Source: Schmidtea nova (lineage: Eukaryota). Taken from it: DNA of 64,000 nt. Positions 2,911 to 20,150 of this stretch are shown here, one piece after another (position 1 is the stretch's first letter; each line of letters opens with the position of its first letter). The position numbers and the translations under genes are program-made. A model generated the notes under the pieces. That model was not told the DNA's origin, made no database searches, and saw nothing but the letters and a program-made list of their open reading frames with translations. Location of the stretch: positions 35,278,001-35,342,000 of the forward strand of contig CM097884.1 in the NCBI GenBank assembly GCA_044892505.1, read 5' to 3'.

Positions 2911-3176
2911 ATGTAAACGATATTGTAAACGATATGAAAAATTTAAATTTGACTTGTTACCAGGATCGAAAGGTTAAAGAAATAGACAAAGGGGGTAAGG
3001 TGCGAGAGGAAAGTTTAATTAATGTAAGGGAGGTGATAGGTGGAGTGGCTTGGCCACAGGATATTGGAAAAGAATGTTGCCATGGACCCCATCATTCTTT
3101 TATATTTGGGAATAATATGGGTAGAGAAGGTGCTCGTTATAGGTATCCGCATGGGGTTAGGCGATCGAGAGAGGTA

Positions 3177-3403
3177 TGGCAGATATTTGTGAAGACTTTG
3201 ACAGGGAAAACTATTACTATTGAAGTGGAAATAATTGACACAATTGCGGACGTAAAAGAGAAAATTCAGGACAAAGAGGGAATACACCTAGTCAACAAAG
3301 GCTTAGTTACCATTGCAAACTATTAAAGGAAGGAAGTAGACTGAGTGATTACCTGATACATGATGAATCCACTATTCATCTATCATTGAGATTGTGTGGA
3401 GGG
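3177..3403 (+). pseudogene. Full-length ubiquitin-like domain fused to Gag (one 1-nt deletion)
   Basis: [38 protein letters not shown][fs][37 protein letters not shown]. The span is 227 nt, i.e. 76 codons minus 1 nt, with about 51/76 identities to ubiquitin by manual alignment. The second half is in frame with the Gag ORF. Confidence 0.93.
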
Positions 3404-4660
3404 AATGGTGAAGAGGAGGAATTAGAGGAAGGATTGAGAAAGAAGAGGAGTGTCAAGTATAAATTGACGAGATTAAGAAATAAATGGATGAACGATATGC
3501 TGGCAGAAGAAGCATCACATGTGCTTGATGAATATCAGGAAGCAATGGAGAGTGCCATAGAGAATTTTGAAAGACTGTTGGATATCAGCAGAAGATTAGG
3601 AAGGTCAGATACAACAACTGTGCTAGAAGCGGATTTAAAAGAGATTGAAGAAAAGAATGATAAGGTGGAAGAGCAAATTTCGTCAAAGGCCAATCAGTCA
3701 GTAAGGTCGAATGACAACAACACAATTAAAGAGGTAGGTGGGAATGAAACAAAGAAAAGACTAGATAAAATGCAGAAGATACGAATTCAGATATTTGATG
3801 TACAACAGAAAGAATACGAAAGTTGGAGAGCTGCTTTCCATGCTTGTGTTGATAATGCACATGGTGAGGATGATGAAAAGATGTTACACCTTCGATCGTA
3901 TCTGAAAGGTGAACCATTAAAGTTGATCGAAAATTTAGGATTTTCTTCAACCGGTTACCAAATGGTAAAGGAAAAGCTCGATAGAAGATATGGCGGTGAA
4001 GAACGAAATTATTTAGCGGCTCTTGAAGACATAGACAAGTTCCGACCCGTTCGTGAAAATGAAATGCTAGAAATAGAGGCATTCGTTGGATTATTAGAAA
4101 CCCTGGAAGTTAGAATAATTAGTATTAGACGAGAGGACGAAATGAAGAACAGTTATTTATTGAAAAGATGCCTGCAGAAACTACCCAGCTCGCTGTTATA
4201 CAAATGGAAGAAAGATTTTGAGGAGGAAAAGGTAACCGAGTGTATCCAAGATTTAAGAAATTGGTTACAAGATGAAGTCGAGCTGTTAAGGTCAACCAAA
4301 GAAACACTTTATGGAGTTGGTGATGACAATAGAAGAAACGATTGGAAAAGGCAGGATGGGTCGTCAAGAAACCTTGTAAATCTAAGACAAGGGAACCGGA
4401 CGCTTGTTGGGCAAGTAGCGGATAAGAATGATAACAAGGCAAACATGCCAAGAAATGAATTTTTGGGCACAAAGTTGAAATGTTGGAAATGCAAGGAAAA
4501 TTGTTATTTGGATCAATGCAGAGAATTTAAAGAAATAACGCCCGCAATGCGACATAAACCAGTAGGAGACTGGAAGTTATGCTTCAATTGTTTAAAGACG
4601 AATCATTTGGCATCGGAATGTCGAAAGGCTTCATTTTGTAGGAAAGAGGGCGTAATCTGA
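3404..4660 (+). CDS. BEL/Pao Gag (DUF1759-like core plus Cys/His knuckles)
   Basis: Open frame of 424 aa with KMLHLRSYLKGEPLKLI..GYQMVKEKLDRRYG, CWKCKENC..DQC and CFNCLKTNHLASEC. Confidence 0.85.
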   Translation, partial: NGEEEELEEGLRKKRSVKYKLTRLRNKWMNDMLAEEASHVLDEYQEAMESAIENFERLLDISRRLGRSDTTTVLEADLKEIEEKNDKVEEQISSKANQSVRSNDNNTIKEVGGNETKKRLDKMQKIRIQIFDVQQKEYESWRAAFHACVDNAHGEDDEKMLHLRSYLKGEPLKLIENLGFSSTGYQMVKEKLDRRYGGEERNYLAALEDIDKFRPVRENEMLEIEAFVGLLETLEVRIISIRREDEMKNSYLLKRCLQKLPSSLLYKWKKDFEEEKVTECIQDLRNWLQDEVELLRSTKETLYGVGDDNRRNDWKRQDGSSRNLVNLRQGNRTLVGQVADKNDNKANMPRNEFLGTKLKCWKCKENCYLDQCREFKEITPAMRHKPVGDWKLCFNCLKTNHLASECRKASFCRKEGVI

Positions 4661-4716
4661 AACACAGTACCCTACTTCATGTGGATCAGTTAGAGTCTAA
4701 AAGGAAGTAGAACACA

Positions 4717-5880
4717 TTGATGTCCGCTACGAAAGATGATTTGATAACAAGAGAGCAAATATTTCTAAGCTTGAGGACCATACCAATCTATCTTGAGCAT
4801 GGAAGAAAGAAGATTAAAATTAATGCGCTTTTAGACGATGCTAGCTCTATTAGCTACATTAGTCAGAGTATTGCTGACGAGTTGGGTTTAAAATGGAAAG
4901 AGGAAATAGTTCCTGTGAGCGTCATCGAAGGTGACATTCAAAATATGACAACAAAAATAGTCACGATGACGTTAATAAGTTATGATCAGAAGATGAAGAA
5001 GGAGTTTACAGCGTCAGCCGTAAAGAGTGTAACCGGAGAAATGAAGGTAATTAATTGGGCAAAGGAAAAATGGCAATGGGAGCACTTAAAGGATATATGA
5101 TTTCCAATGCTTGATGAACAACAGGTGGTGCATGTTCTTATTGGAGCCGATTATTTAGGGTTGAAAAGAGAGTTGAAGGAAGTGGATGAGAAGATGAATG
5201 AACCTATTGCGAGATTAACGCTGTTAGGTTGGACCTGTGTTGGTAATACGCCGATATGGAAGATGTGGAGTCACCAGAGTAATTTTACGCGAACTTTCTT
5301 TGGTCAGGGAGATGGATTGGATGAAATTGGGCTAAAGGAAGTAGAGTTTTCAAGAAACAATATGGAAATATATGATAGGACTAAAGGCACGTTACGAAAG
5401 GTAGCCGGAAATTATGAAGTGAGAATTCCATGCAAATCGTCACCAAAGTTATTACCGGACAGTGGGTTTATGGCTGAGAGACGTCTAAAAAACCTACAAC
5501 GGAAACTAGAAAACGAAGGAATCAAAGAGGAATATGAAAACATTTTTGAAGATTATATAAAGAAAGATTATATAACAGTTGTTAAAGAAGATCATATAAA
5601 AGATAAAGAAAATGAATGGATTTTACCTCATTTTCCAGTAATAAGACGAGATAAACAAACAACAAAAGTTCGAATTGTTTTTGATGCAGCGGCAAAAAGT
5701 GGTGGAAGGGCGTTGAACGATATAGTGGAGAGTGGACCTAAGCTACAGAACGAAGTGTTCGATTATTTAGTAAGATTTCGGAGATATTCTGTCGCATTAG
5801 TTTAGGATATAGCAAATATGTACTTACAAGTTAAGATTGCTCCGGAAGATAAACCATATCACCGGTTTTTATGGAAAAAG
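4717..5880 (+). pseudogene. BEL/Pao protease and reverse transcriptase N-half
   Basis: All in frame 1, with stops at 5098-5100 and 5803-5805. The similarity ends at HRFLWKK (about 5880), before the catalytic YxDD. RNase H and integrase are absent. Confidence 0.88.
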
Positions 5881-5967
5881 GATAATATTGCTGGTAAAAT
5901 GGTTGACAACTTTAAGTCTGTCGGTATTGCAAGCGAGAATTAAATAAATACTACTTCAAACGAATTA

Positions 5968-6732
5968 GTGCAAAAATTAAGGAAGGAAATTGAATCTACA
6001 ATGGTTGTGGAAGATGAGCAGGCAATGAGTGAAGAAAATACTGAAGAAAATTGCATTGTCGATGAGAAAATTGTGGAAAATATTAACGATATCGATGAAA
6101 ATTGTAAAATTGAGGAAAATAGCGGAGAGAATGTCATTAATGATGAAAAGATGGAGCAAGAAAAATTAGAAAGTTCGAATATTAATAAAAATGACAAAAT
6201 AGATGAAATGTCTTTGGGAATTGAAACTATTTCTCAACAAGTGCAACAATCTGTTGAGTTTCAGCAGTCACTCCAAAATGCATTTGAAACAAGTAAAGAC
6301 AAAGGTGAAAAACTCATGGGAGAATTAAAAAATGTGAATTTGATAAATGAAAATTTAAACGATAAAGATGAATTCAGAAATAGGATAAAAATCTTGGAAT
6401 TAGAAATAGAAGATCTTGAAAATAAAATAAAAACGACCGAATTAGAATATAAAAGTGAAATTAAAGAGTTAAAAGTAAAGTTAAAGAATTTGGCTGAAAC
6501 TGTTGAAACGTTATCAGTGGAGATGGGAAATGTAAATGACATTAACGATAAATTGGAAACGGTGATTTTAGAAATAAAAATGTCCATATGTGTGAGGGTG
6601 AGTATCCAGGATAGTTCAAGAGGATTATTGGTCAAGGAAAAATTCAGGGACAAAAATAAGTATTGGCCGAAATGGAAAAATAAAGTTAAGAATCAGAAGG
6701 TTTGCCCCCCTAGAGATGAATGGGTCGGTTGA
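5968..6732 (+). CDS. Acidic/coiled-coil ORF (254 aa) in the same frame as the truncated pol
   Basis: E/N/K-rich, with heptad-like RIKILELEIEDLENKIK..EIKELKVKLKNLAETVETL. A single TAA (5941-5943) separates it from the RT frame. Confidence 0.5.
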   Translation: MQKLRKEIESTMVVEDEQAMSEENTEENCIVDEKIVENINDIDENCKIEENSGENVINDEKMEQEKLESSNINKNDKIDEMSLGIETISQQVQQSVEFQQSLQNAFETSKDKGEKLMGELKNVNLINENLNDKDEFRNRIKILELEIEDLENKIKTTELEYKSEIKELKVKLKNLAETVETLSVEMGNVNDINDKLETVILEIKMSICVRVSIQDSSRGLLVKEKFRDKNKYWPKWKNKVKNQKVCPPRDEWVG

Positions 6733-7369
6733 TCTGCTAGAAGGGATCAAGGCTTACTTCTATCTGAGTCTATGTGTGCGTAGCATGAGTGAAGTCGCGT
6801 CCGTGTGTGCTTTTATAATTTAATTTAGTTTTATTCGCGGAGTAAAGGGGAAAAGGGAGACTTAATGCTAAAAAGGAAAATGAATAAGAATAATAAACAC
6901 TTGGGGTTGACACAAAGGTGTCAAGAAGGGGGGTATGGTGATTTCTGGATGTACTATCAAACCACTATCAAAGATTTTGATAGCAGAAAACTGTTTGCAT
7001 GGAATACACAAGTTAAAGAGGCGTTTATTTATTAAAAGGAGCTCTAACAGAAACACATATTCTTAGTTTACCAATCGACAGCGGTGATTTTATTTTTGAT
7101 ACAGATGCTTCTAACAACCACATCGAAGAAGTTCTCTCTCAAATTCAAAATGGAGAAGAAAACGGCTCAAAATGCATCACAAAAGTCCAAAGCAAATATT
7201 TTATAACTTGAAAAGAAATTTTGGCTATCTATACATTTGTTCTAAAATATAAATATTATGTTTTCGGTAGAAAGTTTATCGTTTGAAATGATCATTAAGC
7301 ATTGAAATGGTTTTTAATTTGGATTCTCCAAATACTTCACAGTTTTGTATTTGGAAAGTAGAATTAAAA

Positions 7370-9480
7370 GTTTATGACATGGAAATTAAATACTGATTTG
7401 GAAAGGAACATCTTAACGCAGACGTACTGCCCAGAACCGCATTGTGAACAATTCCAAATATTGCACTCGGATCCACAAAAGAAGCGTAATGTAAAAATTT
7501 GCAATGAATTATGCTCAAGATCTGAGTCAAATCCAGATTGCCAAAACGGGAATTTTCAAACTCTTTCTACTGACATGAAAAAAATAATCAGATATAAAAA
7601 AAACTTAGAATTCTAGGTGATTTATTATACACTTTTAATAATAACATCTATCGTGAAGTGTTACCAGTTAAAAAACGAAAGAATATGATAGAAAATTTTC
7701 ATAAGCAACTAGGACATGTTGGTGTGGAAAAGATGTGCAAAGCAATTCAAAATGAATTCTTTTGGCTAGATATTCTAAGTGATATCGAAAAGAAATATCG
7801 CTGTGTACATCTTGTTGAGGTTCGTATAAAATGGTTCAACGTGATATGAAAGTGCTCGGTGATACAATTGATAGATTACAATTGATAAATAAGTACAAAA
7901 TTAATTAAAAATTTGAATTTAAAAATTGACATATCGGTAGGGGGTGGGTGTGTGCAAACGGCAAATGAAGAGACGAGTACGAGTACGAATATGATAAAAA
8001 ATATCAATGGGGGGTCCCTAGAAAAAGATATTCAATAATTAAAAATCAGTTAAAAATTAATGAATAATTTATTAGTTATGTAGAAAACACGTGTCAATTG
8101 GAAAGCCAAAAAAAGGAAAACCCGATATAAAATCTAATTACCGGAGTCGTAGGCCAAAATAATTGAGTTATAAGAGACAACGATCATCTCAATTCTGCGA
8201 AAATCTAAGTTTATAAAAGAATAATCATATTGCATCCCTATTGTAAAAATTTGTTTGAAATGTTGACGCTATGAAATTGCTATAAAAAGATTAACAGAGC
8301 TGCTGTAAATCGACAGTTTGGTCAAAGTAAAAATTTATTCGGGAGTACGACACATTTGGTAAGTGAAGAGAGTTCGATTATCAGAAATCTAATATTAGCA
8401 AATCAAAAGAGTATTAAAAAGGGCGATCTACACTTGGTAGACTTAACCATATCGCTGAAATAAAAAGAGTGCGGAGTGTTTTGCAGAAATTTGAAATTGT
8501 ATTGATTTATAGTTTGTAAATTGTGGAATGTAATAAAAGTTATTGTGTTGGGTTTTAGTGATTTGTTTTTCTAGTAGCACGAGGAGTGAAACAATAAACC
8601 GACTTAAAATAAATAACCCAAAAATTTTGTCAAGATTCAAACGATAAAAAATAGACGAAATAGAACTCCGCTGCAAAATAATCAGTCATTTCAAATGATT
8701 GCCATTGATATCACCGGGTCTTTTCAAATAAAAACACGTGGAAACAGATATATTATCGGCAATTTAGATTATTATACAAAATATGAATGCCTGATTCCAC
8801 TAAAATATATTTCTACTAAAGCTGTGGCTAACACTATATGGACTCAGTGAATTACAAAGTTTGAGTGTCCGGGATATGTTCAGTCAAATAATGATTCAAA
8901 TTTTATAAGTAAACTTATTGAAGTATTCAGTATGAATATGAGAAGTAAAAAAGGTTTTTCAACACCGAATTTTCCACAGTGCAATGGGTTGATTGAAAGA
9001 CTATAAATAACTGCAAAGAAGATAATTTGCAGTGGTTTAAAAGAAAGACGATCCAACAGTTGAAATGAAATATTACCAATGATTGAAATGGGAATCAGAA
9101 GTAAAACACAAAAGAGAACAGGATATTCTACATATAAGATTTTGTTTGATCTCAAATTAATAAACCTTTGAGTGTTGATATCACATATGATGATTTACTT
9201 TTAGAGCGGTGGAGATTATATATGAAGACAATTCAAATTGAGGCTTTGAAAACCATCCAAAACAATCAAGAGATTCAAAAGATGAATTATGACAAAGGAA
9301 GAATATCTGATGATATTGAAATTGGCGATTAGTGGTGGTTTGAAGAGAAAGTAACCAAAGTTCCAATTCAAAATATTATCGTCCTTTTTCTATTAAAGCA
9401 GTCATTAACAAATGGACTTATCTACTAAGAAGAAAAGATGGAAGAACGCTTCAGAAAAACTTCAACCAAGTAAAAAAGGA
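7370..9480 (+). mobile_element. Ty3/Gypsy pol remnant (integrase), heavily decayed and interrupted
   Basis: FHKQLGHVGVEKM..FFW (integrase Zn domain, 7690-7790). FQMIAIDITGSF..GNRYII..DYYTKY and PQCNGLIERL (integrase core, 8690-9005). Many stops. Confidence 0.72.
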
Positions 9481-10946
9481 TACCAAATAATTCAAGAAGT
9501 GTTGAAGCACTGGAAACAAGCGAGGGGATTGTTTTAATATCAATAGAAATTTTGGATCTTGATTTAAAATTGTTAATTTAATTAATCTATTATAATTTAA
9601 ATATAAAATATTCACCTTTTACAGGATCCTAGAATATTAAAATCAGAAATACCAACTTCTTGCGAAAATAAATAAAAAGAACCTTAATAAGGATTTTTAT
9701 CCTCGCCAAGTTCCCAAATCCTATGTTAAGTAGTGAATATATCTCAAAGAATTCAAAAGAGATATCAAATAAAATAAATTCTTAAAATAACATTCGGAAA
9801 CATTTTACCAAGAAATAGAGACTGGACGCTGCCAAAAAGTTTCCACAGATCAATTAATGTAAATGAGAGAAAAATGAGAGAAGCGCAAACAAATTTGAAT
9901 GAATGCTAGTTAGTAGTAAATGATGTTCTTACAAATAAAATAATTTAAATAAAATTTTAACTACTCATACACCATCAGAATCAAACTCAACGCCTGTGAC
10001 TAAAGAAGTAAAAAGAGTAAGTCAAGTCTGAAGAGAAGACGTCAGCATAGTCGTCAGTTAGAGACCAGGATATTAAAGAAGTTCAATGCTCAATTATTAT
10101 TTCTGAAATCATTAACAAACGAAGAATTTATTGGCAACTTGATTATCTCATAAATCGATATCTGTGCATTAAATGTTTATTAGGTATAATGGAATGTGTA
10201 TTTATAGTTTTGGTGATGATATAAGGTATATATATAATAATGAATGGTGCAGCCAAACTCAAGAACTTCCATCAGCAGGTAGAACCTGGAAAGCAGGGTA
10301 TGACCAAGGATTAGTTCTGGAAGTAGAGCTTAACTGGTACATAATCGAGGAACGTAGCAAAATTTTCTTGATAGTGTTAAGTGAGAGGAAACCCATGGAT
10401 AAACAGTGAAAGAAATTTTTAATTGAACGAAACACACAAATATGGAAGAACTTAAATTTTAGAATAAATTCTATATACTAAAAATAAAATATTATTGGAA
10501 AAGTACACTCATTTTATAAATTCCTCTACTTCTACTTTAATATTTAATATTTGTATTAAAAATAATTTGTATTATTTTAATTTTATAAGCTGTGCATCTA
10601 ACAAAATTATAAATTTATTAGTTCCCAAGAATTACACTTCAGATCATAGAATAATATTTTAATTAAACGATGAAATTATTTTAAATAATTAAAAATTACT
10701 GTTTCGTTTTCTGATAAATGTGTATTTGAGCATACTTAATTGTTAAAGATTTACTCTTTTGAAACTTTTTAATATACAACATATTATAATTTCTCAAAAC
10801 AAATAAAAATTTAAATATTTATGTCAAAGAAAATTTTGAAAATTACAATAGCGATTTTATTGTGTGTTAAGTTTGCTTTAATTTCATAATAATAGCACAA
10901 TAGCTAACATGCTGTATTTAAATGAATCGTTTTAATATTAATTACA

Positions 10947-10986: not shown

Positions 10987-13900
10987 ATGTCTAAAACAGT
11001 AAATTATTTTTTTATTGATTGTAATTTTAATTAATTTTTTAAAAAATTATATTAGATTGCAATTAAAGTTTCAACAATCGACTCTGAGTTAGAATTCTCA
11101 GTGGCTTCAAACACTACCGGCAAACAACTATTTGATCAAGTCTGTCTAATATATTAATAGAAAATAATTTTTATTTATTAATAGGTCGTCAGAACGTTAA
11201 ATATTCGTGAAATCTGGTGGTTTGGTTTGAAATTTATTGACTCAAAAGGTTTAACTTCATGGTTGAAGTTGAATCGAAAAGTAACTTCACAAGATGTGGG
11301 AAAAGTTTACCCATTGAAGCTGCAATTCTGTGTGAAATATTACCCTGAAGATGTCGGTGTTGAACTGATTCAGGAAGCAACACAACGTTTGTTTTATCTC
11401 CAAGTGCGCCAGGATATATTAAATGGTGAAATCTACTGTCCACCGGAAACCTGCGTTCTTTTGGCTTCCTATGCTTGTCAGTGCAAATATCTGGATTTCA
11501 ATGATACGCTTGTTGCTAACAAAGAAGAATTTATCTACAAGGATAGATTGTTACCGCAAAAGTTTATATTATATATTACTTTCAAACTAGTATTTATTTG
11601 TTGTTATCTCCCGACAGGATAATCGATCAACACGGAATGACAAATGAGCAATGGATTGACAAGATCGTTATGATGTATAAATCTCACAAAGATATGCTAC
11701 GGGAAGACAGCATGCTTGAATATTTGAAAATCGCCCAAGATTTAGACATGTACGGTGTAAATTATTTCGAGATAACTAATAAGAAAGGAACCGAATTATA
11801 TTTGGGTATTGACGCACTTGGATTGAATATTTATAACAAGGATAACAAGTAATGATTTTTTTAAATTGATTAAATTGTGTTTTTGATAAAAACTTAAAAT
11901 TTAAATTATACATTAATAATGGATTATTAATCAATTTGTTTATGTTGAACACTATTTTAATAATTGTTTACTTTGTGTGTCTGAGACAGATAGTTCATAT
12001 TATCATTATTAATTACATAGTTTAATAGGATTTTATTAGATATTAAATATAAGCCAGCTTTCAAAGCTTGAGGTCCATCTATAATATAATCAGTTTATTT
12101 CAGTTATTTTCCATTTTTAGTACAAGATAACAATTTTAAACTAGAGACCGTTTTTCTCTATAAGATAAACAAAATGTTAATGAAACAAAGAGCGCCCCAA
12201 AACGTCAATTAGCGTTATCCGCAATGAATGTATAACGTGTTTTTGATCGAAAACATCTTATAATTGACATAATTTCTATTAATATATCGTATTTAATAGT
12301 CAGTGTGTTTATATTGGATATTATATTGCTACTTGTTTATATTGCGAGAGGTAGTTTATATTATTATTAAATATATAATTTAAAAGCAACTTAATAAACA
12401 CTTGATCATATAACAAGTCGAAATGCTAATATATTTCAGTTATTTTCATATTTTAGGACTAAATCAATATTTTTATTGGTGGATAAATTTTGATCTAGTC
12501 TTAAAAAATAAAATATCTGAAATTGAAAAGGACAAATCAAAAATGCTAATGACCAGATTAAAAAACAATTTCAAAAATAAGATAGTATACGAAATGGCAC
12601 GTCCAATAATGATAATTATAAGCACGCTGGGGATAGCGAATCAAAGGACGCTCAAAATTATTATAAGAATAATTAAATTGAAGAAAAATGATTACATTTC
12701 CAATATCTACAGAAGCGATCTTTGAAAGGAAGTTGTCACTTTATAAAATTAAAATTATTTGTCAAGAATTAAAAAACTTCCATGTAAATTTCACATAAAA
12801 TTGGTGCATCAAATGAACAAAAAATTATTGATTTTGTTATTTTTTTGATGAGAATTTATTTCTACATTGAAAACTGTCAGAAATTTTGGGCTTATTAACA
12901 CACTTTTGCTATGGTTAGTATTTTGCTAACTTTCCCACGGAGTCGAAGCATTTTTATTGCTTGGTATTACGTAATGTTATTTAGAATGTGTTTTGGAAAA
13001 TATTGATAAAATTTTATATTTTTTACGCCAATTGGCTTACTACTTGTCGCTCCGTGATAGAAATGAATGTAGATAGAACACGCACAACTTTTCGGGTTTT
13101 CGGTACGAATTATTTTCTTAAAAATGAAAATTGACTCGAGGAAATGGAAAATAGATATTAAATAGCCATTTCTCATAATAGCGCAATCAAACACAAAATA
13201 TCACCTCCTAAAATACTGATAAAAAGAAGGAGTATTCTGAGAAACTGGAAATCATTTTTAGAATAAGAAAAATCGAATGAAACATTGATCGGCGTGGAAC
13301 GCCAATTGGCGTCATTCCTAACCAAATCGTGTTATTGATCTATCAGCCTATTTGTGAAATTATATGTCTAGTAATGTAATAGATTATTAATCAATGTGTT
13401 TATGTGGAACGTTATTTGTTTATCTTGTGTGTGCGTGTGAGAGAGATACAGTTTATATTATTATTATTATTATTAATTACATCATTATAGTTGCTAAGTT
13501 TTATTCTGCCGACAAACAACTTAAATTAATTTATTTTATTTAGATTAACTGCTAAAATTGGATTTCCATGGAGTGAAATCAGAAATGTGTCTTATTCCAA
13601 TAAAAAATTCTCAATTAAATCTACGGATAAAAATTCATCGGTAAGCTTATGTTATTAATAAAATCAATAATAGTATTTCTGTGGGAGGTTTTTAGCAGTT
13701 TTCAGTAATAAAGCGTTTAGATTTTGAGGGTGTAACACATGTGAATGTGCGAATCGTGTAGTGGGCTCAATTTAGGGCCTTTCAAGAGCATTTCGTTACC
13801 GGGATTATTCTAAATCCCCGTAGTCCCCCGAATGTTCTTTTTTTTAAAAAAAAAAGTATTTGAATATATTACGTTAAAATTTTTTTTTTTAAAATTTTTG

Positions 13901-16900
13901 AATATTGATTTTTTTAGTTTTCACATTTTTTCAAAGTGTAAATAAAAATTTTCAATTTTTCTCAACGTTAATTAGTTGAGCACATCGTGCTGCACATTCC
14001 CCCCGTTGAAAATGTTTTTGTATCACGCGCGAGGTTTTTTGCAGTTTTAGATTTTGAGGGTGTAACACATGTAAATATACAAATCGTGTAGTGGGCTTAA
14101 TTTAGGGTCTCTCAAGGGGCATTTCGTTACCGGGATTATTCTAAATTACCCTAGTTCCCCAAATGTTCTTATTTTTTAAAAAATTTTTTGAATATTGATT
14201 TTTTTAGTTTTGACATATTTTCAATGTGCAAATAAAATTTTTCAATTTTTCTCAACGTTAATTGGTTGAGCACATCGTGCTGTACATTCCCCTTTGTTGA
14301 AAATGTTTTTGTATCACGTACGAAAACACAAGAAAAAGGAAAAAAATTGAAAAATTAAGTTTGTTTTAACTTTCTTTCTATGTCTAAAGAAACTTTTTTA
14401 ATTCGGATATTCGCAAAAAATGAGCGCTGTTTCAAGACTACTTATTTCATTATCTCGTCCCATTGTCTTTAAGCTATGTTTGCTGAAGGAAAATTAAACC
14501 AAACATTAATTTGATATTTTGTTACCGGGATTATTTAAATGTTCTTTTTAAAAAAAGTATATATAGTATAGCTCTGTATGATAGTTTACATTGGCATATT
14601 AAATTATCATCATTATAGGGGACCTGGGTGTGCTGGGTCAGACCAAACCAAGGGGTAATATATAATCAATTAAGTGGAACCTCATTAACCTGTTTATAGG
14701 AATGCTAATAATATATTTTTTTTAATTCTTAAAATTAGGGCGGTTCCGAATCGCATTAAATTCCTCTGACCACGCCAATGTTATCGAATATATCTATTTA
14801 AATTGTTTAACATAATTTTTAAAAAAATCAAATAAACATTTATTTATTATTGTATGAAAATATTATGGTAAAAAATTATTTGACAGAGGCCATCAAAATA
14901 TTGAAACAAATAATTTTAACACTAATAATTAATTTATGTTATTTTATGCTCAATTAAATTATTTTTATTACAATTATTTTTTTTCTTACGATTCTTGAAT
15001 TCTGCTTTATAAGTAAAAATATTTCCAATTATTAATTATAAGTTAATATTTGAAATGGAAATATTTTTTCGTTGTAAATTATTATTTTTTTACATTTATC
15101 ATAAATAAATTTTTGCATTATTCATATTATTAAAATTTCAACATAATTAATTAATGATATTTATTATTATGAAAATATTATGGTAAAAAATTATTTGACA
15201 GGCCATCAAAATATTGAAACATATAATTTTAACACTAATAATTAATTTATGTTATTTTATGCTTAATTAAATTATTTTTATTACAATTATTTTTTTGAAT
15301 TATTCATATTATTTAAATTTCAAGATAATTAATTAATTCTATTTATTGTTGAATTCTATTTTTTCAAATATTTTATTTAATAATCTGTATTGATTTATCA
15401 CTGTAAAATGTTTTTTGAGCACACATTCGTTTTTATTTATTACGTGACTGATAAACGCATTGTAACTAATATGTATGTGATTTTCATTTAAATAATAACT
15501 TTATTAAAAATAATCTTTAATTTATTAATTTAATTTCGTTGAAAATCACTTTTTTATGTCATAATTGAATATTGATTAAAAACTAAAATATTAATTACAA
15601 TTTTGATATAAAATAAAAACACGGTAACATAAAAAATTAAGAGTGGAACTAATTGAAATCACCCAATAAATTAATCGTTTCGGTATTTAAGCGAATATTT
15701 TATAAATTAACTGACTGTACTAGCCGACTTTGTCTAGGATATTTACCATCTGTATATATTGACTAAAAATTCCACTATTTCAATGAAAAAAATTGAAAAT
15801 GCACTATCAAATTAAATCATCACAAATTTTTAATGTGATTGGTCAAATTCATTTCCACCTGTGATGATAATGGCAATATTGTGTCCTAGAAATAGTTACG
15901 GTAACAGGAATTTCAAATAAAAAAATTTGCAAATCTTACGATTCTTGAATTCTGCTTTATAAATAAAAAAATTTCCAATTATTGATTATATGTTAATATT
16001 TGAAATGGAAATGTTTTTTCGTTGAAAATTATTATTTTTTATTACATTTATCATAAATAAATTTTTGCATTATTCATATTATTTAAATTTCAACATAATT
16101 AATTAATTTTATATATTATTCAATTATATTTTTTCAAATATTTTGTTTAATAATCTGTATTGATTTATCACTGTAAAAAGTTTTTTTGAGCATACATTCG
16201 TTTTTACTTATTACGTGACTTGAAAATAATAACTTTATTAAAAATAATCAATAATTTATTTGTTTCATTTCATTGAAAGTCACTTATTTGTTATAATTGA
16301 ATATCGATTAAAAACTAAAATGTTAGTTACAATATTGATATAAAATAAAAACACGTTAACATAGAAAATCAGGAGTGTAACTAATTGAAATCACCCAAAA
16401 AATTAATCGTTTCAGTATTTTAGCGAATATGTTTATAAATTAACTAACTTTGACTAAAAATTGAAAAAGTCTTATCAAATTAAATCAATATTAAAGTGGT
16501 TGGTCAAACTCATTTCTAGGATTTTCAAATAAGAAAATCTACGCAAATTTCACGATCATAGAAAACTGACCGAATTCTGCTTTATAAGCTAAAATATCCC
16601 CAATTATCGATTATATGTTAATATTTGTAATAGAAATGTTTTTTTTGTTGAAAATAAAAAATGAATGTAAAATTTTCACACGACTTGCGATGGATTTTAA
16701 ATGGGACTCATTTCGGACAATATGACAGAAATATACATCAATTCTCCATTAATCACATTTATTGCAATTAAATTAGGGGGGAAATAAACTCCACATTTTA
16801 AATTAGATATAATATTTCATAAATCTGACCTAGAAAATTTGATATTTGATATTGATTTATGCCTCTTAATAAATTCCAAATGAAAACAAATTTATTTTTA

Positions 16901-18045
16901 ATCAACACTAATTGACCAAATATTCACTTGTGATATTTTTCTAAATAACAATTCCGATTTCAGCCAACATTTGATTCAATATCTCTAATAACTTTATTTT
17001 TACCGATTATAATTTATTTTAATATATCAAACAAGTTCAAAGTTCGAGTTTGTTTTATTTAATTTTATTTTTTACTAAGAATAATGACAAAACATTTAAT
17101 TTTCAGAATTTTGTCTTCATGACTAAACATTCTCGAATAAACAAAGCAATTTTAAACCTTTCAATGGGCAACCATGACTTGTATTTACGAAGGAGGAAAA
17201 ATGAAACAATCGAAATGCAACAAATGAGAGCACAAGCCGAAGAGGATAAAAAGGCGAAATTAGACAGCAAGTAATGATAAAAGAAACTCCCTGTCAGCTG
17301 CTGATTAATGTCCCGTCGTTTTAGAGACAAAGTCAACCAAGAAAGACTCGCTAAAGAGATTGTGGAGAAAAAACTAGCGGAATTGGAATTGATTCTCAAA
17401 GCGTCGAATGAGAAAAACGAAGAAACCCAGAAGCAACTCGAAGAGTACGAGCGTAAAATCAGAGAGCTGGAAATCTTATTGGAAGAATCCAACAAGCAGA
17501 AACAAGATCTGGAATCAATGCATGAGAAATTAGCCGCCAATAACAAAGCGTTAGAAGAAGCGCAGAAAACCGTCAGCGAAGACTACGAGAAATTGTTGCA
17601 GGAAAACGAGGCGATCCAGTCGGAAATCCATTTGAAGAATTCCGAAGTCCAACAGAGCGCAATGGAGTTATCGATTAGACAAGCGGAACTGGAGAAGCTG
17701 CGGTTGGAGCGAGAAGAGCTGGAAATCAAAGCCCGGCAATTGGAGGAGATCGCCATTGAGAAGGAGAACAATCGCGAAGAAGCTCACAATTTCGAATTGC
17801 TGGAAACCGGCGATGACCGACGAGAAGAAAACCGAACGACAACGCTTTCCGGTAACAAAGACCTTCAGGACCAATTGAAATGCTTGGCCAATGAATTGGA
17901 AGAAAGGAGACTCGAATCGAAACTCGATCAGACGGATATGATTCACAGAGAAAATCAACGCCAAGGACGGGATAAATTTCAAACTCTTCGTCAAATTCGA
18001 CAGGGTAACACTAAAAAGCGAGTCGATGAGTTCGAATCGCTTTAA
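10987..18045 (+). CDS. ERM: ERM family protein (moesin/ezrin/radixin homolog), 7 exons, 561 aa
   Basis: join(10987..10998,11056..11139,11185..11561,11618..11848,13544..13640,17107..17270,17325..18045) = 1686 nt, all GT-AG, open throughout. It contains the FERM domain ([37 protein letters not shown]), a helical region and the ERM C-terminus [26 protein letters not shown] with the regulatory Thr. Confidence 0.97.
11920..13485. repeat. Pair of ~110-bp direct repeats bounding an insert in ERM intron 4
   Basis: GATTATTAATCAAT(T/G)TGTTTATGT(T/G)GAAC...ATTAATTACAT occurs at about 11920-12025 and about 13380-13485. Confidence 0.55.
13686..14320. repeat. Tandem duplication (units of ~345 and ~290 bp) in ERM intron 5
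   Basis: GAGGTTTTT.GCAGTTTT..AGATTTTGAGGGTGTAACACATGT...GAAAATGTTTTTGTATCACG is repeated at 13686-14030 and 14031-14320. Confidence 0.9.
14830..16640. repeat. Patchwork of overlapping local duplications in ERM intron 5
   Basis: About 14835-14975 recurs at about 15165-15300. About 14976-15150 recurs at about 15935-16110, with a partial third copy at about 16570. About 15340-15720 recurs at about 16110-16450. Confidence 0.8.
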
Positions 18046-18377
18046 AAACGGCAATAACAATATAATTTTATTATTATTATTATTGTGCTTGTGACGGTCC
18101 GGCTCAATTATTATTATCGATCGACCTTGTAATGATTGCAAATTTATTGATTAACTAGGATTGTGAGTGTATGTGTGTACGTGTGTGTGTGTTTGCGCGT
18201 GGAGCGATTTTTCATGATTTTTCATTCGATTTTACTTCCGATACTTTTTTAATGTCCGTTTCAACAAATTTCTAAGTCTCTTTACAATATTACTGTTATT
18301 ATCATTATTGCCGCCTATTTCTAGTCAAAGGATTTTTTCAATAAAATATATTGTTTTTAGTAGCTGGTCTTAGCTTT

Positions 18378-19204
18378 ATGTTTTTTGGAATTATTAACAT
18401 TTTTAACTATTATGTCTATTTTTATCGGTGACAGTGATTATGTAATATATATATATATATATATTTTCTGTTGAAAATGATATAAAAAATATAAATATTT
18501 TTAACATTTGTTTTAATTTGCGGAAAAATATATTTTTGTATAAATAAACAATAAATAATAAAATAGTAAATAATTTGAAAATTGATAAAGTAAAATGGGA
18601 AAACGTTGTTAACAAAAAATTACATGAATATGATTTCAAATAAAAGATAAAAATAACAAAAGGTAACCTGACTCGAAATAACAAAAAATATATTTTAATG
18701 TTTTTTGGAATTATTAACATTTTTAACTATTATGTCTATTTTTATCGGTGACAGTGATTATGTAATATATATATATATATATATTTTCTGTTGAAAATGA
18801 TATAAAAAATATAAATATTTTTAACATTTGTTTAATTTGCGAAAAAATATATTTTTTATAATTACACAATAAATAATAAAATAGTAAATAATTTGAAAAG
18901 TATATAAATAAAAAAATAAAATATTTTTAACATTTGTTTTAATTTGCGGAAAAATATATTTTTTTATAAATAAACAATAAATAATAAAATAGTAAATAAT
19001 TTGAAAAGTGATAAAGTAAAATGGGAAAACACTGTTAACAAAAAATTACATGAATATGATTTCAAATAAAAGATAAAAATAACAAAAGTTAACCTGGCTC
19101 GAAATATCAAAAAATATATTTTAATGTTTTTTGGAATTATTAACATTTTTAACTATTATGTCTATTTTTATCGGTGACAGTGATTATGTAATACAGTGAT
19201 TATG

Positions 19205-19264
<60 letters not shown>

Positions 19265-20150
19265 ATAAATAAACAATAAATAATAAAATAGTAAATAATT
19301 TGAAAAGTGATAAAGTAAAATGGGAAAACATTGTTAACAAAAAATTACATGAATATGATTTCAAATAAAAGATAAAAATAACAAAAGGTAACCTGACTCC
19401 AAATATCAAAAATTATATTTTAAAGTCATTTGACGATAAAAAAACAAATTTCGGTGATAGTGATTATATTATACAATTATATATTTTTGTAGAAATGATA
19501 TTAAATTTATATATTTTCGACATTTGTTTTAATTTGCAAAAGAATATATTTTTGTTTAAATACACAATAAATAATAAAATTGATTTGAGGATTTGAGGGC
19601 ACAAAATAGTAAATAATTTGAAAAGTGATAAAGTAAAATGGGAAAACGTTAACAAAAAATTACATGAATATGATTTCAAATAAAAGTTCAAAATAACAAA
19701 AGGTCGTGTAATGTTGATAATCTGACTTGAAATGTCAAAAAAAGATATTTAAAGTAACTATTGACAATAAAAACGGAACAAATATAGGTGATAGTGAATA
19801 TGTAATACAATCATATATATTTTTCTGTAGAAAATGATTTAAAAATATAAATATTTGTTTTAATTTCCAAAAGAAATTTTTTGTTTAAATATACAATAAA
19901 TAACATTTAGAAATTGAATTGATAACACAAGATTGAGGATTTGAGTGCACTTAAAATTGTAAATTATTTGAATAGTAATAACTTGAGACCAGATTTTAAA
20001 GTAAAATGGAAAAATGTTGTTAGTAAAAATCACGTGAACATAATTTAAAATTTAAACTAAAAGTAAAAAAGGTCGTGCAATGTTTATAATTCGATTTGAA
20101 ATGTTAAAAAAGATATTTTAAATTCACTTCTGTAGATATAAACAGAACAA
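18378..20150. repeat. ~320-bp tandem array (about 5 units) with an internal (TA)n
   Basis: The unit start ATGTTTTTTGGAATTATTAACATTTTTAAC occurs at 18378, 18698 and 19124. Two more diverged units follow. (TA)n is expanded at about 19207-19260. Confidence 0.9.

Follow-up and report, generated by a model that had tools for sequence, protein, structure and literature searches.

An internal ubiquitin domain between a cargo-loaded leader and Gag in a clade of BEL/Pao retrotransposons

The window analysed here, a stretch of 64,000 nucleotides from the genome of Schmidtea nova, contains a dead, decayed copy of a BEL/Pao retrotransposon clade in which ubiquitin lies inside the polyprotein, as a spacer that separates Gag from a long leader loaded with cargo. 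The domain is probably a cleavage module for host deubiquitinases (DUBs), predicted to free Gag from a variable, translated leader. An earlier note on this DNA had proposed an old capture retained under selection in active lineages, and this is upheld by the spread of the domain through a clade, by the ratio of non-synonymous to synonymous changes (N/S) among shared variants and by young sister families.

Structure of the window element

The window copy has the following features (position, strand, description).

1-775, plus: 5' LTR, whose start lies about 110 bases ahead of the window; it matches two sister-copy LTRs at 86-87%
777-794, plus: primer binding site, an 18-nt complement of the host tRNA-Met 3' end
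795-1089, plus: first part of the leader, 82-93% to two sister-copy leaders
1090-2924, minus: inserted DNA-transposon fragment with long minus-strand frames, interrupting a leader that sister copies have in one piece
2925-3176, plus: second part of the leader, open in the ubiquitin frame, with in-frame ATGs at 2934 and 3117
3081-3094, plus: second tRNA-Met box, decayed in the window, complementary to the anticodon arm and read as YGP in protein
3177-3403, plus: ubiquitin-like domain lacking Met1, with a frameshift near codon 37 and the ending L-R-L-C-G-G
3404-4657, plus: Gag, with a helical N-terminal region, a DUF1759 capsid region (about 3794-4219) and zinc knuckles
4660-5886, plus: aspartic protease and first part of the reverse transcriptase (RT), with stops; Pol breaks off
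5887-6730, plus: acidic and coiled-coil segment, common to Pol-deleted (non-autonomous) relatives of both families
6858-6954, plus: 3' end of the internal region with the purine tract, 88-94% to other copies

The 5' LTR terminates in CA just ahead of the primer site and holds, at about 90-530, a decayed fragment of S-adenosylmethionine (SAM) decarboxylase; the LTRs of two sister copies match Pfam SAM_decarbox at 1e-23. In the polyprotein frame of sister families the primer binding site translates to GSRAW. The 1.8 kb minus-strand insertion that splits the leader is presumably of hAT type; neither it nor the acidic and coiled-coil segment has a Pfam match. Pieces related to the insertion occur near other loci. 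Profile matches (Pfam) fall on ubiquitin at both sides of the break, then on DUF1759, a zinc knuckle and, weakly, the aspartic protease. The copy is also damaged by a break between Gag and protease (about 4645-4660), by stops in Pol and by the loss of Pol at about 5886, and a 3' LTR was not found beyond 6954.

The assignment to BEL/Pao made in the earlier note holds. Gag has DUF1759 and zinc knuckles, and a relative of full length (L031-L033), 7.8 kb long and with LTRs that are 96.4% alike, shows the order Gag-PR-RT-RH-IN with Peptidase_A17, which places family A, the family of the window copy, in BEL/Pao. The Pol order PR-RT-RH-IN with a Peptidase_A17 region is also present in family B, a sister family described below. 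LTRs running TG..CA, a primer site, a purine tract and a short target duplication, as expected of BEL/Pao, were all found; one copy (L128) has identical 878-bp LTRs, a 5-bp target duplication and a tRNA-Met primer site.

In Pol-deleted derivatives (L120, L127, L179, L181, L047; window 5887-6730) the acidic coiled-coil segment terminates Gag/protease in frame, and such derivatives of both families appear to outnumber complete copies. Directly after the element, at about 6955-9500, the window contains decayed Ty3/gypsy-like RT-RH-integrase remains with an Integrase_H2C2 match at 7643-7846, and the stretch 13882-20074 has several families of AT-rich repeats, dispersed and tandem, whose units measure about 100-430 bp.

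The ubiquitin domain of the window

The 76-codon ubiquitin-like domain reported earlier is present at 3177-3403 as 227 nt, one base short, and its LRLCGG tail does run into Gag at 3404 without linker or stop. The estimate that about a third of its residues have diverged is also sound, as 22 of 73 comparable residues are unlike host ubiquitin (X at the break). Its supposed N-terminal position was mistaken. In-frame codon 1 is TGG (Trp), and Met occurs there in none of 46 family copies; the ATG at 3176 lies in another frame, and the ubiquitin frame itself continues open upstream, where it has ATGs at codons -81 and -20. The 1-nt deletion placed at Asp39 maps instead to about 3284-3286 (codon 37), and Asp39 is found in 0 of 46 copies. 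Nor are the changes mostly conservative, since I44S, G47C, V70S and R74C are among them. Residues 44, 47, 70 and 74 belong to the surfaces read by ubiquitin-binding proteins and most DUBs. At the junction Gag begins with Asn, as in 44 of 45 copies, and lacks a Met of its own.

Structure prediction for an unbroken natural copy gave a beta-grasp fold (pLDDT 85-91; TM 0.93-0.96 to ubiquitin) ending in di-glycine in frame with Gag, and the GG junction is predicted as a flexible loop. The 50 matches listed by a fold search are all to ubiquitin, with none to confirm the capsid fold.

Copies of family A and selection on ubiquitin

Searching the genome with the junction gave 1552 candidates, 40 of which were scored, and found copies 87-100% alike; a second search reached an older subfamily of family A. 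LTR pairs are 95-98% alike in the younger group and 89-92% alike in the older. In a search with Gag only, ubiquitin was directly upstream in all 30 of the best matches from the genome, and some of these loci carry a second, decayed ubiquitin. In L162, L168, L170, L172, L173 and L178 an older, decayed ubiquitin-like domain stands upstream of a second domain that is host-like. The reading frame is open across the ubiquitin domain in 14 of 27 younger copies. The older group retains Ile44 in 18 of 19 aligned copies and is set apart by a compensated frameshift at about codons 51-57.

From 60 fetched loci, 10 refetched places and 3 near-duplicates were removed, leaving 47 distinct copies. The search for further copies that had been proposed thus shows that ubiquitin is not a one-off: these 47 copies, the sister families and the public relatives refute a single retrocopy insertion, and the distinct genomic copies likewise exclude an assembly chimera.

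Variants of the ubiquitin domain shared by three or more of the 47 copies comprise 25 synonymous and 30 non-synonymous changes, against 24 and 99 among private variants (p=5e-4; p = 7e-4 without codons 49-58). Private variants behave as neutral, with N/S about 1. For shared variants in ubiquitin N/S is 0.34-0.45 and not near 1, the value that had been named as telling against selection; it is similar to that of the N-terminal part of Gag and indicates weaker constraint than on the capsid (0.21-0.30). The ratio for ubiquitin between subfamilies is 0.56. Inherited variants in family-A ubiquitin show moderate purifying selection, and recurrent mutation can mimic shared variants.

Upstream of ubiquitin, no protein-level constraint was seen on codons -45 to -1 (p=0.27). 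In-frame leader ATGs of family A are found at -44 in 43 of 45 copies and at -20 in 41 of 46. In the window-type leader, as far as copies were checked, the primer site and ubiquitin are in different frames, and read-through from the LTR therefore does not apply to every subfamily. The window subfamily has drifted, losing Ile44, Val70 and Arg74 and retaining Arg72, and is now decayed; the canonical DUB-reading surfaces (Ile44 patch, Arg72, Arg74) are incomplete here and complete in family B.

Young sister families

A Pfam ubiquitin search of the genome gave 2605 candidates, of which 150 were scored. Host repeats (polyubiquitins, UBA52, RPS27A) account for 14 of these; of the other 136, 78 lie in open frames of at least 1000 aa. 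Sixteen of 17 ubiquitin loci examined belong to family B, whose LTRs are 99.6-100% alike where both are covered. A single frame leads in this family from the LTR through the primer site, cargo, a polyubiquitin tail and ubiquitin to Gag; the upstream, second polyubiquitin tail is decayed and the Gag-side tail intact. Leader cargo includes an Hsp70 fragment and a further piece that we take to be glutathione-reductase-like. Ubiquitin of family B agrees with the host at 71-72 of 76 residues, and its Gag is 40% identical to that of family A. Two complete frames, of 2290 and 2343 aa, come from copies with 99.7-100% LTRs, and no env-like gene was seen in these two full-length frames. The in-frame leaders of eleven family-B copies are a biased sample because the copies were picked for long frames; among unbiased ones two of three are in frame.

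A 26-base pattern has 363 exact matches in the genome. All three pattern loci fetched, which were picked regardless of frame, have family-A Gag (80-85% to the window), an LCGG tail and a host-like ubiquitin body, and all are open from LTR cargo through the primer site to Gag; each carries Hsp90 cargo, joined in two by FKBP or TPR cargo. The sister subfamily that combines family-A Gag, LCGG tail and host-like body has at least 363 copies. As the pattern loci carry LCGG, the tail with Cys74 is found in a lineage of high copy number whose open frames are long.

The YGP box is intact in most sister copies shown and in 3/3 family-B loci checked. It was observed (window 3081-3094; L120, L126, L128) to be complementary both to the primer tRNA-Met, at its anticodon arm, and to itself. 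It may be a second primer-binding or dimerisation site, the complementarity to tRNA fitting as well as a self-pairing hairpin.

Other observations concern the wider set of loci. One locus (L086 / L147:6691-7911) has an Hsp90 piece, a polyubiquitin tail, ubiquitin ending LLGG, a stop and a short coiled-coil, and is possibly a third, truncated family. Elements occur in head-to-tail arrays with 4.5-5.6 kb spacing in several places (for example C1:323388335-323402188 and C1:34767878-34782984). From G000:C1:510090089 onward (L141), tRNA-Met genes are repeated in tandem every 458 bp, and a 22-nt tRNA end pattern has 1031 matches genome-wide. Broken, polymerase-like frames at L120:77-2418 resemble, we assume, a protein-primed B-family DNA polymerase of Polinton type. 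Four sequencing runs from one study, their kind unrecorded, show a step in depth across ubiquitin, which is a lead to a further subfamily and uninformative on expression.

Captured host mRNAs and refreshed ubiquitin

Cargo in the LTR varies by copy and includes SAM decarboxylase (window type), a RAD23-like UBL with eIF3L, the start of calmodulin with HECT, and FKBP-TPR. The host eIF3L gene was located, and the LTR pieces cleanly lack its GT-AG introns: two are missing in L133, and one in L051, where a deletion spans the other. The eIF3L cargo, which alone was covered by this test, was thereby shown to have been captured from spliced mRNA, and in lacking host introns it has the mark of LTR-mediated retroposition. 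Several pieces (calmodulin, RAD23-like, eIF3L) include a putative host start codon. There are about 100 eIF3L fragment copies to one host gene, and LTR cargo of this type could inflate gene-family counts in annotation. The LTR-side cargo with FKBP and TPR domains (L179:760-1500, L181:574-1200) presumably recalls the piRNA co-chaperone FKBP6/shutdown.

The upstream ubiquitin tail matches a host polyubiquitin repeat at 39/39 nt in L086 and at 97% in L179 and L181, and along the domain the identity to host ubiquitin repeats declines from the 5' to the 3' side. In family B, codons 1-26 almost coincide with one host repeat (22/26 codons), and codons 27-76 differ from the nearest host repeat by 23 silent and 4 amino-acid differences. 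These sequence comparisons show that the ubiquitin body has been refreshed by recombination with host polyubiquitin-like sequence in a mosaic replacement.

Relatives beyond this genome

Among long proteins, a search with the Gag region gave no match, and one with the ubiquitin region gave 11 matches, none with BEL domains; both negatives are weak because an RT-RH query later found the clade. Among the best 120 of 2078 proteins from that query, seven have ubiquitin before Gag, all within the top 26, and an eighth public ubiquitin-bearing relative is a cluster member. Cargo in some of these includes Hsp90, kinesin with Sec23/24, and a TRAF-finger. In a quick, midpoint-rooted tree of the best 60 of the 120 matches, with 50 rows lacking ubiquitin and the window-family row filling 49% of columns, the ubiquitin-bearing public proteins, three N-truncated ones and three rows of this genome form one branch (SH-aLRT 99). 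Two of the N-truncated proteins still show L-x-GG, and one is without the Gag start.

In an alignment of 13 rows, L73, G75 and G76 are the only ubiquitin columns without variation. Identity to host ubiquitin is 24-80% in the public rows and 24-95% over all lineages. Position 74 carries R, Q, L, F, K or C, with R74 changed in most lineages, and the Ile44 patch is lost in other lineages as well as in the window subfamily. Pro after GG is absent in 11/11 lineages; the residue there is Met, Ser or Gly in 8/11, Gln in one public lineage and Asn in both families here. Met follows GG immediately in 4/9 public junctions, which suggests that ubiquitin was fused at the old start of Gag. The primer-site reading GSRA[WC] is present in 4/8 ubiquitin-bearing proteins (first 800 aa) versus 0/113 others (first 400 aa), and the YGP box (YGP[QRM]) in 5/8 versus 1/113 over the same lengths; the leader is therefore in frame in several lineages.

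Proposed function and alternatives

The reading we prefer, that ubiquitin is a module at which host enzymes release Gag, would work as follows. Translation would start upstream, either in LTR cargo or, in the window subfamily, at the conserved leader ATGs, and a host USP-type enzyme would cut after Gly76. The N-terminus of Gag would then be uniform whatever the leader contained. Captures by template switching would cost little and accumulate, because cut Gag keeps the same N-terminus regardless of the leader. The earlier note had suggested a host-cleaved leader, a folding aid or a decoy; host cleavage remains the best option, as a prediction, and the notion of an N-terminal leader was wrong. 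According to the available text of PMC10611586, the Arg74 equivalent and the surroundings of Ile44 restrict Fubi cleavage to few USPs. Given these limits and the loss of Ile44, Val70 and Arg74, cutting of the window variant is uncertain.

Ubiquitin could instead stay attached to Gag, as an aid to folding or solubility, as an ESCRT or late-domain substitute, or as a decoy for ubiquitin-binding proteins. The predicted fold is retained, young families restore a host-like body with Ile44, and the change of R74 in most lineages may slow cutting. What the clade holds invariant, however, is the L-x-G-G tail and not the Ile44 patch, and the loss of that patch weakens the late-domain and decoy ideas of the earlier note for the window subfamily. 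Family B moreover has the host-identical tail LRLRGG, and a ubiquitin fusion with such a tail is expected to be cleaved; nor was an env-like gene seen in the two full-length frames. We regard permanent attachment as unlikely. Cutting might also serve to expose an N-degron or to set Gag dosage, and not to shed cargo. Asn and Gln are destabilising N-termini, and the Asn after GG in both families here and the Gln of one public lineage agree with this, but Met, Ser or Gly in 8/11 lineages do not, and we think such a purpose quite improbable. Polyubiquitin mRNA is abundant, and ubiquitin could be a neutral passenger recaptured repeatedly, as the recent recapture seen in L086, L179/L181 and the 5' codons of family B and the capture of other housekeeping fragments might suggest. 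Yet other cargo changes between lineages while ubiquitin always adjoins Gag (30/30 and the whole clade), the silent differences of family B codons 27-76 outnumber the amino-acid differences, and GG is invariant. The passenger reading is largely refuted by the selection and clade results, and we give it very little credence.

A broader version of release by host cleavage can be put forward tentatively, as a possibility that we doubt. In this clade-wide 'capture and cleave', Gag without a start of its own would borrow starts from the 5' ends of LTR-captured mRNAs and release the cargo as ubiquitin fusions, some of which would act on host silencing or protein quality control. Candidates are Hsp90, Hsp70, the FKBP-TPR co-chaperone fragment, and HECT and RAD23 pieces; they might act as protein decoys or as a source of small RNA against the host gene.

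If host cleavage is the function, this retrotransposon lineage leaves a polyprotein cleavage to the ubiquitin system of its host, an arrangement kept over deep time and a stable counterpart to the short-lived insertions of pestiviruses. It would also offer a reason for the tolerance of hundreds of in-frame captured host codons. The elements are strong exon-shuffling vehicles that fill the genome with housekeeping-gene fragments (over 100 eIF3L pieces, about 2600 ubiquitin candidates), and these are a trap for gene annotation. Their natural L-x-G-G ubiquitin variants, from 24 to 95% identity, form a test set for the requirements of deubiquitinases.

Comparison with known systems

No description of a BEL/Pao element with ubiquitin before Gag was found in the literature searched, which included the available text of PMC6431247, PMC9289625 and PMC3118150; Repbase, Dfam, GyDB and most subscription journals lay outside its scope. 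The closest described group appears, from a by-eye RT comparison, to be the Flow superfamily of BEL/Pao (de la Chaux and Wagner 2011, PMC3118150), which includes Repbase BEL1-I_SM and was published without ubiquitin. The elements share with it the order Gag-PR-RT-RH-IN, DUF1759, Peptidase_A17 and DUF5641, and the RT resembles, by eye only, that of the planarian Flow family NC-63 in the supplement of that paper. Its classification uses PR, RT and IN; the word ubiquitin has 0 occurrences in its main text, and such text as is accessible describes no translated cargo leader.

Giant Ty3/gypsy elements of the Burro/GYPSM1 type also carry extra host-like domains, including a SUMO-like one, in an LTR-element polyprotein, but they belong to the gypsy superfamily, with Gag N-terminal and the extra domains downstream, and no ubiquitin-GG-Gag junction is described in the available text of PMC6431247. 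Host precursors such as UBA52, RPS27A and Fubi-eS30 (PMC10611586, as far as its available text goes) similarly have a GG-ending ubiquitin or UBL before a partner and are cut by DUBs; these are host genes with the UBL N-terminal, whereas here its position is internal and its carrier a mobile element. LTR-mediated retroposition, in the available text of Tan et al. 2016 (PMC5131818), shares the template-switch capture of spliced host mRNAs and the multi-gene mosaics inside LTR elements. There the chimeric retrocopies lie in discontinuous elements, while here complete young elements carry the cargo in their LTR and leader, in frame with Gag-Pol and ahead of a ubiquitin spacer.

As a cleavable spacer, its likely function here, ubiquitin is known from pestiviruses and was not found in print for retrotransposons. 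Cytopathic pestiviruses, from the text available in PMC8310069 and PMC13517609, likewise have captured host ubiquitin mRNA in a polyprotein in which host hydrolases set the downstream N-terminus, and their inserts sometimes also have additional host sequence upstream and an N-terminus that is cut short. In those RNA viruses such insertions recur and are short-lived, whereas in these retrotransposons the module is fixed in a clade, has diverged to as little as 24% identity and precedes a capsid protein.
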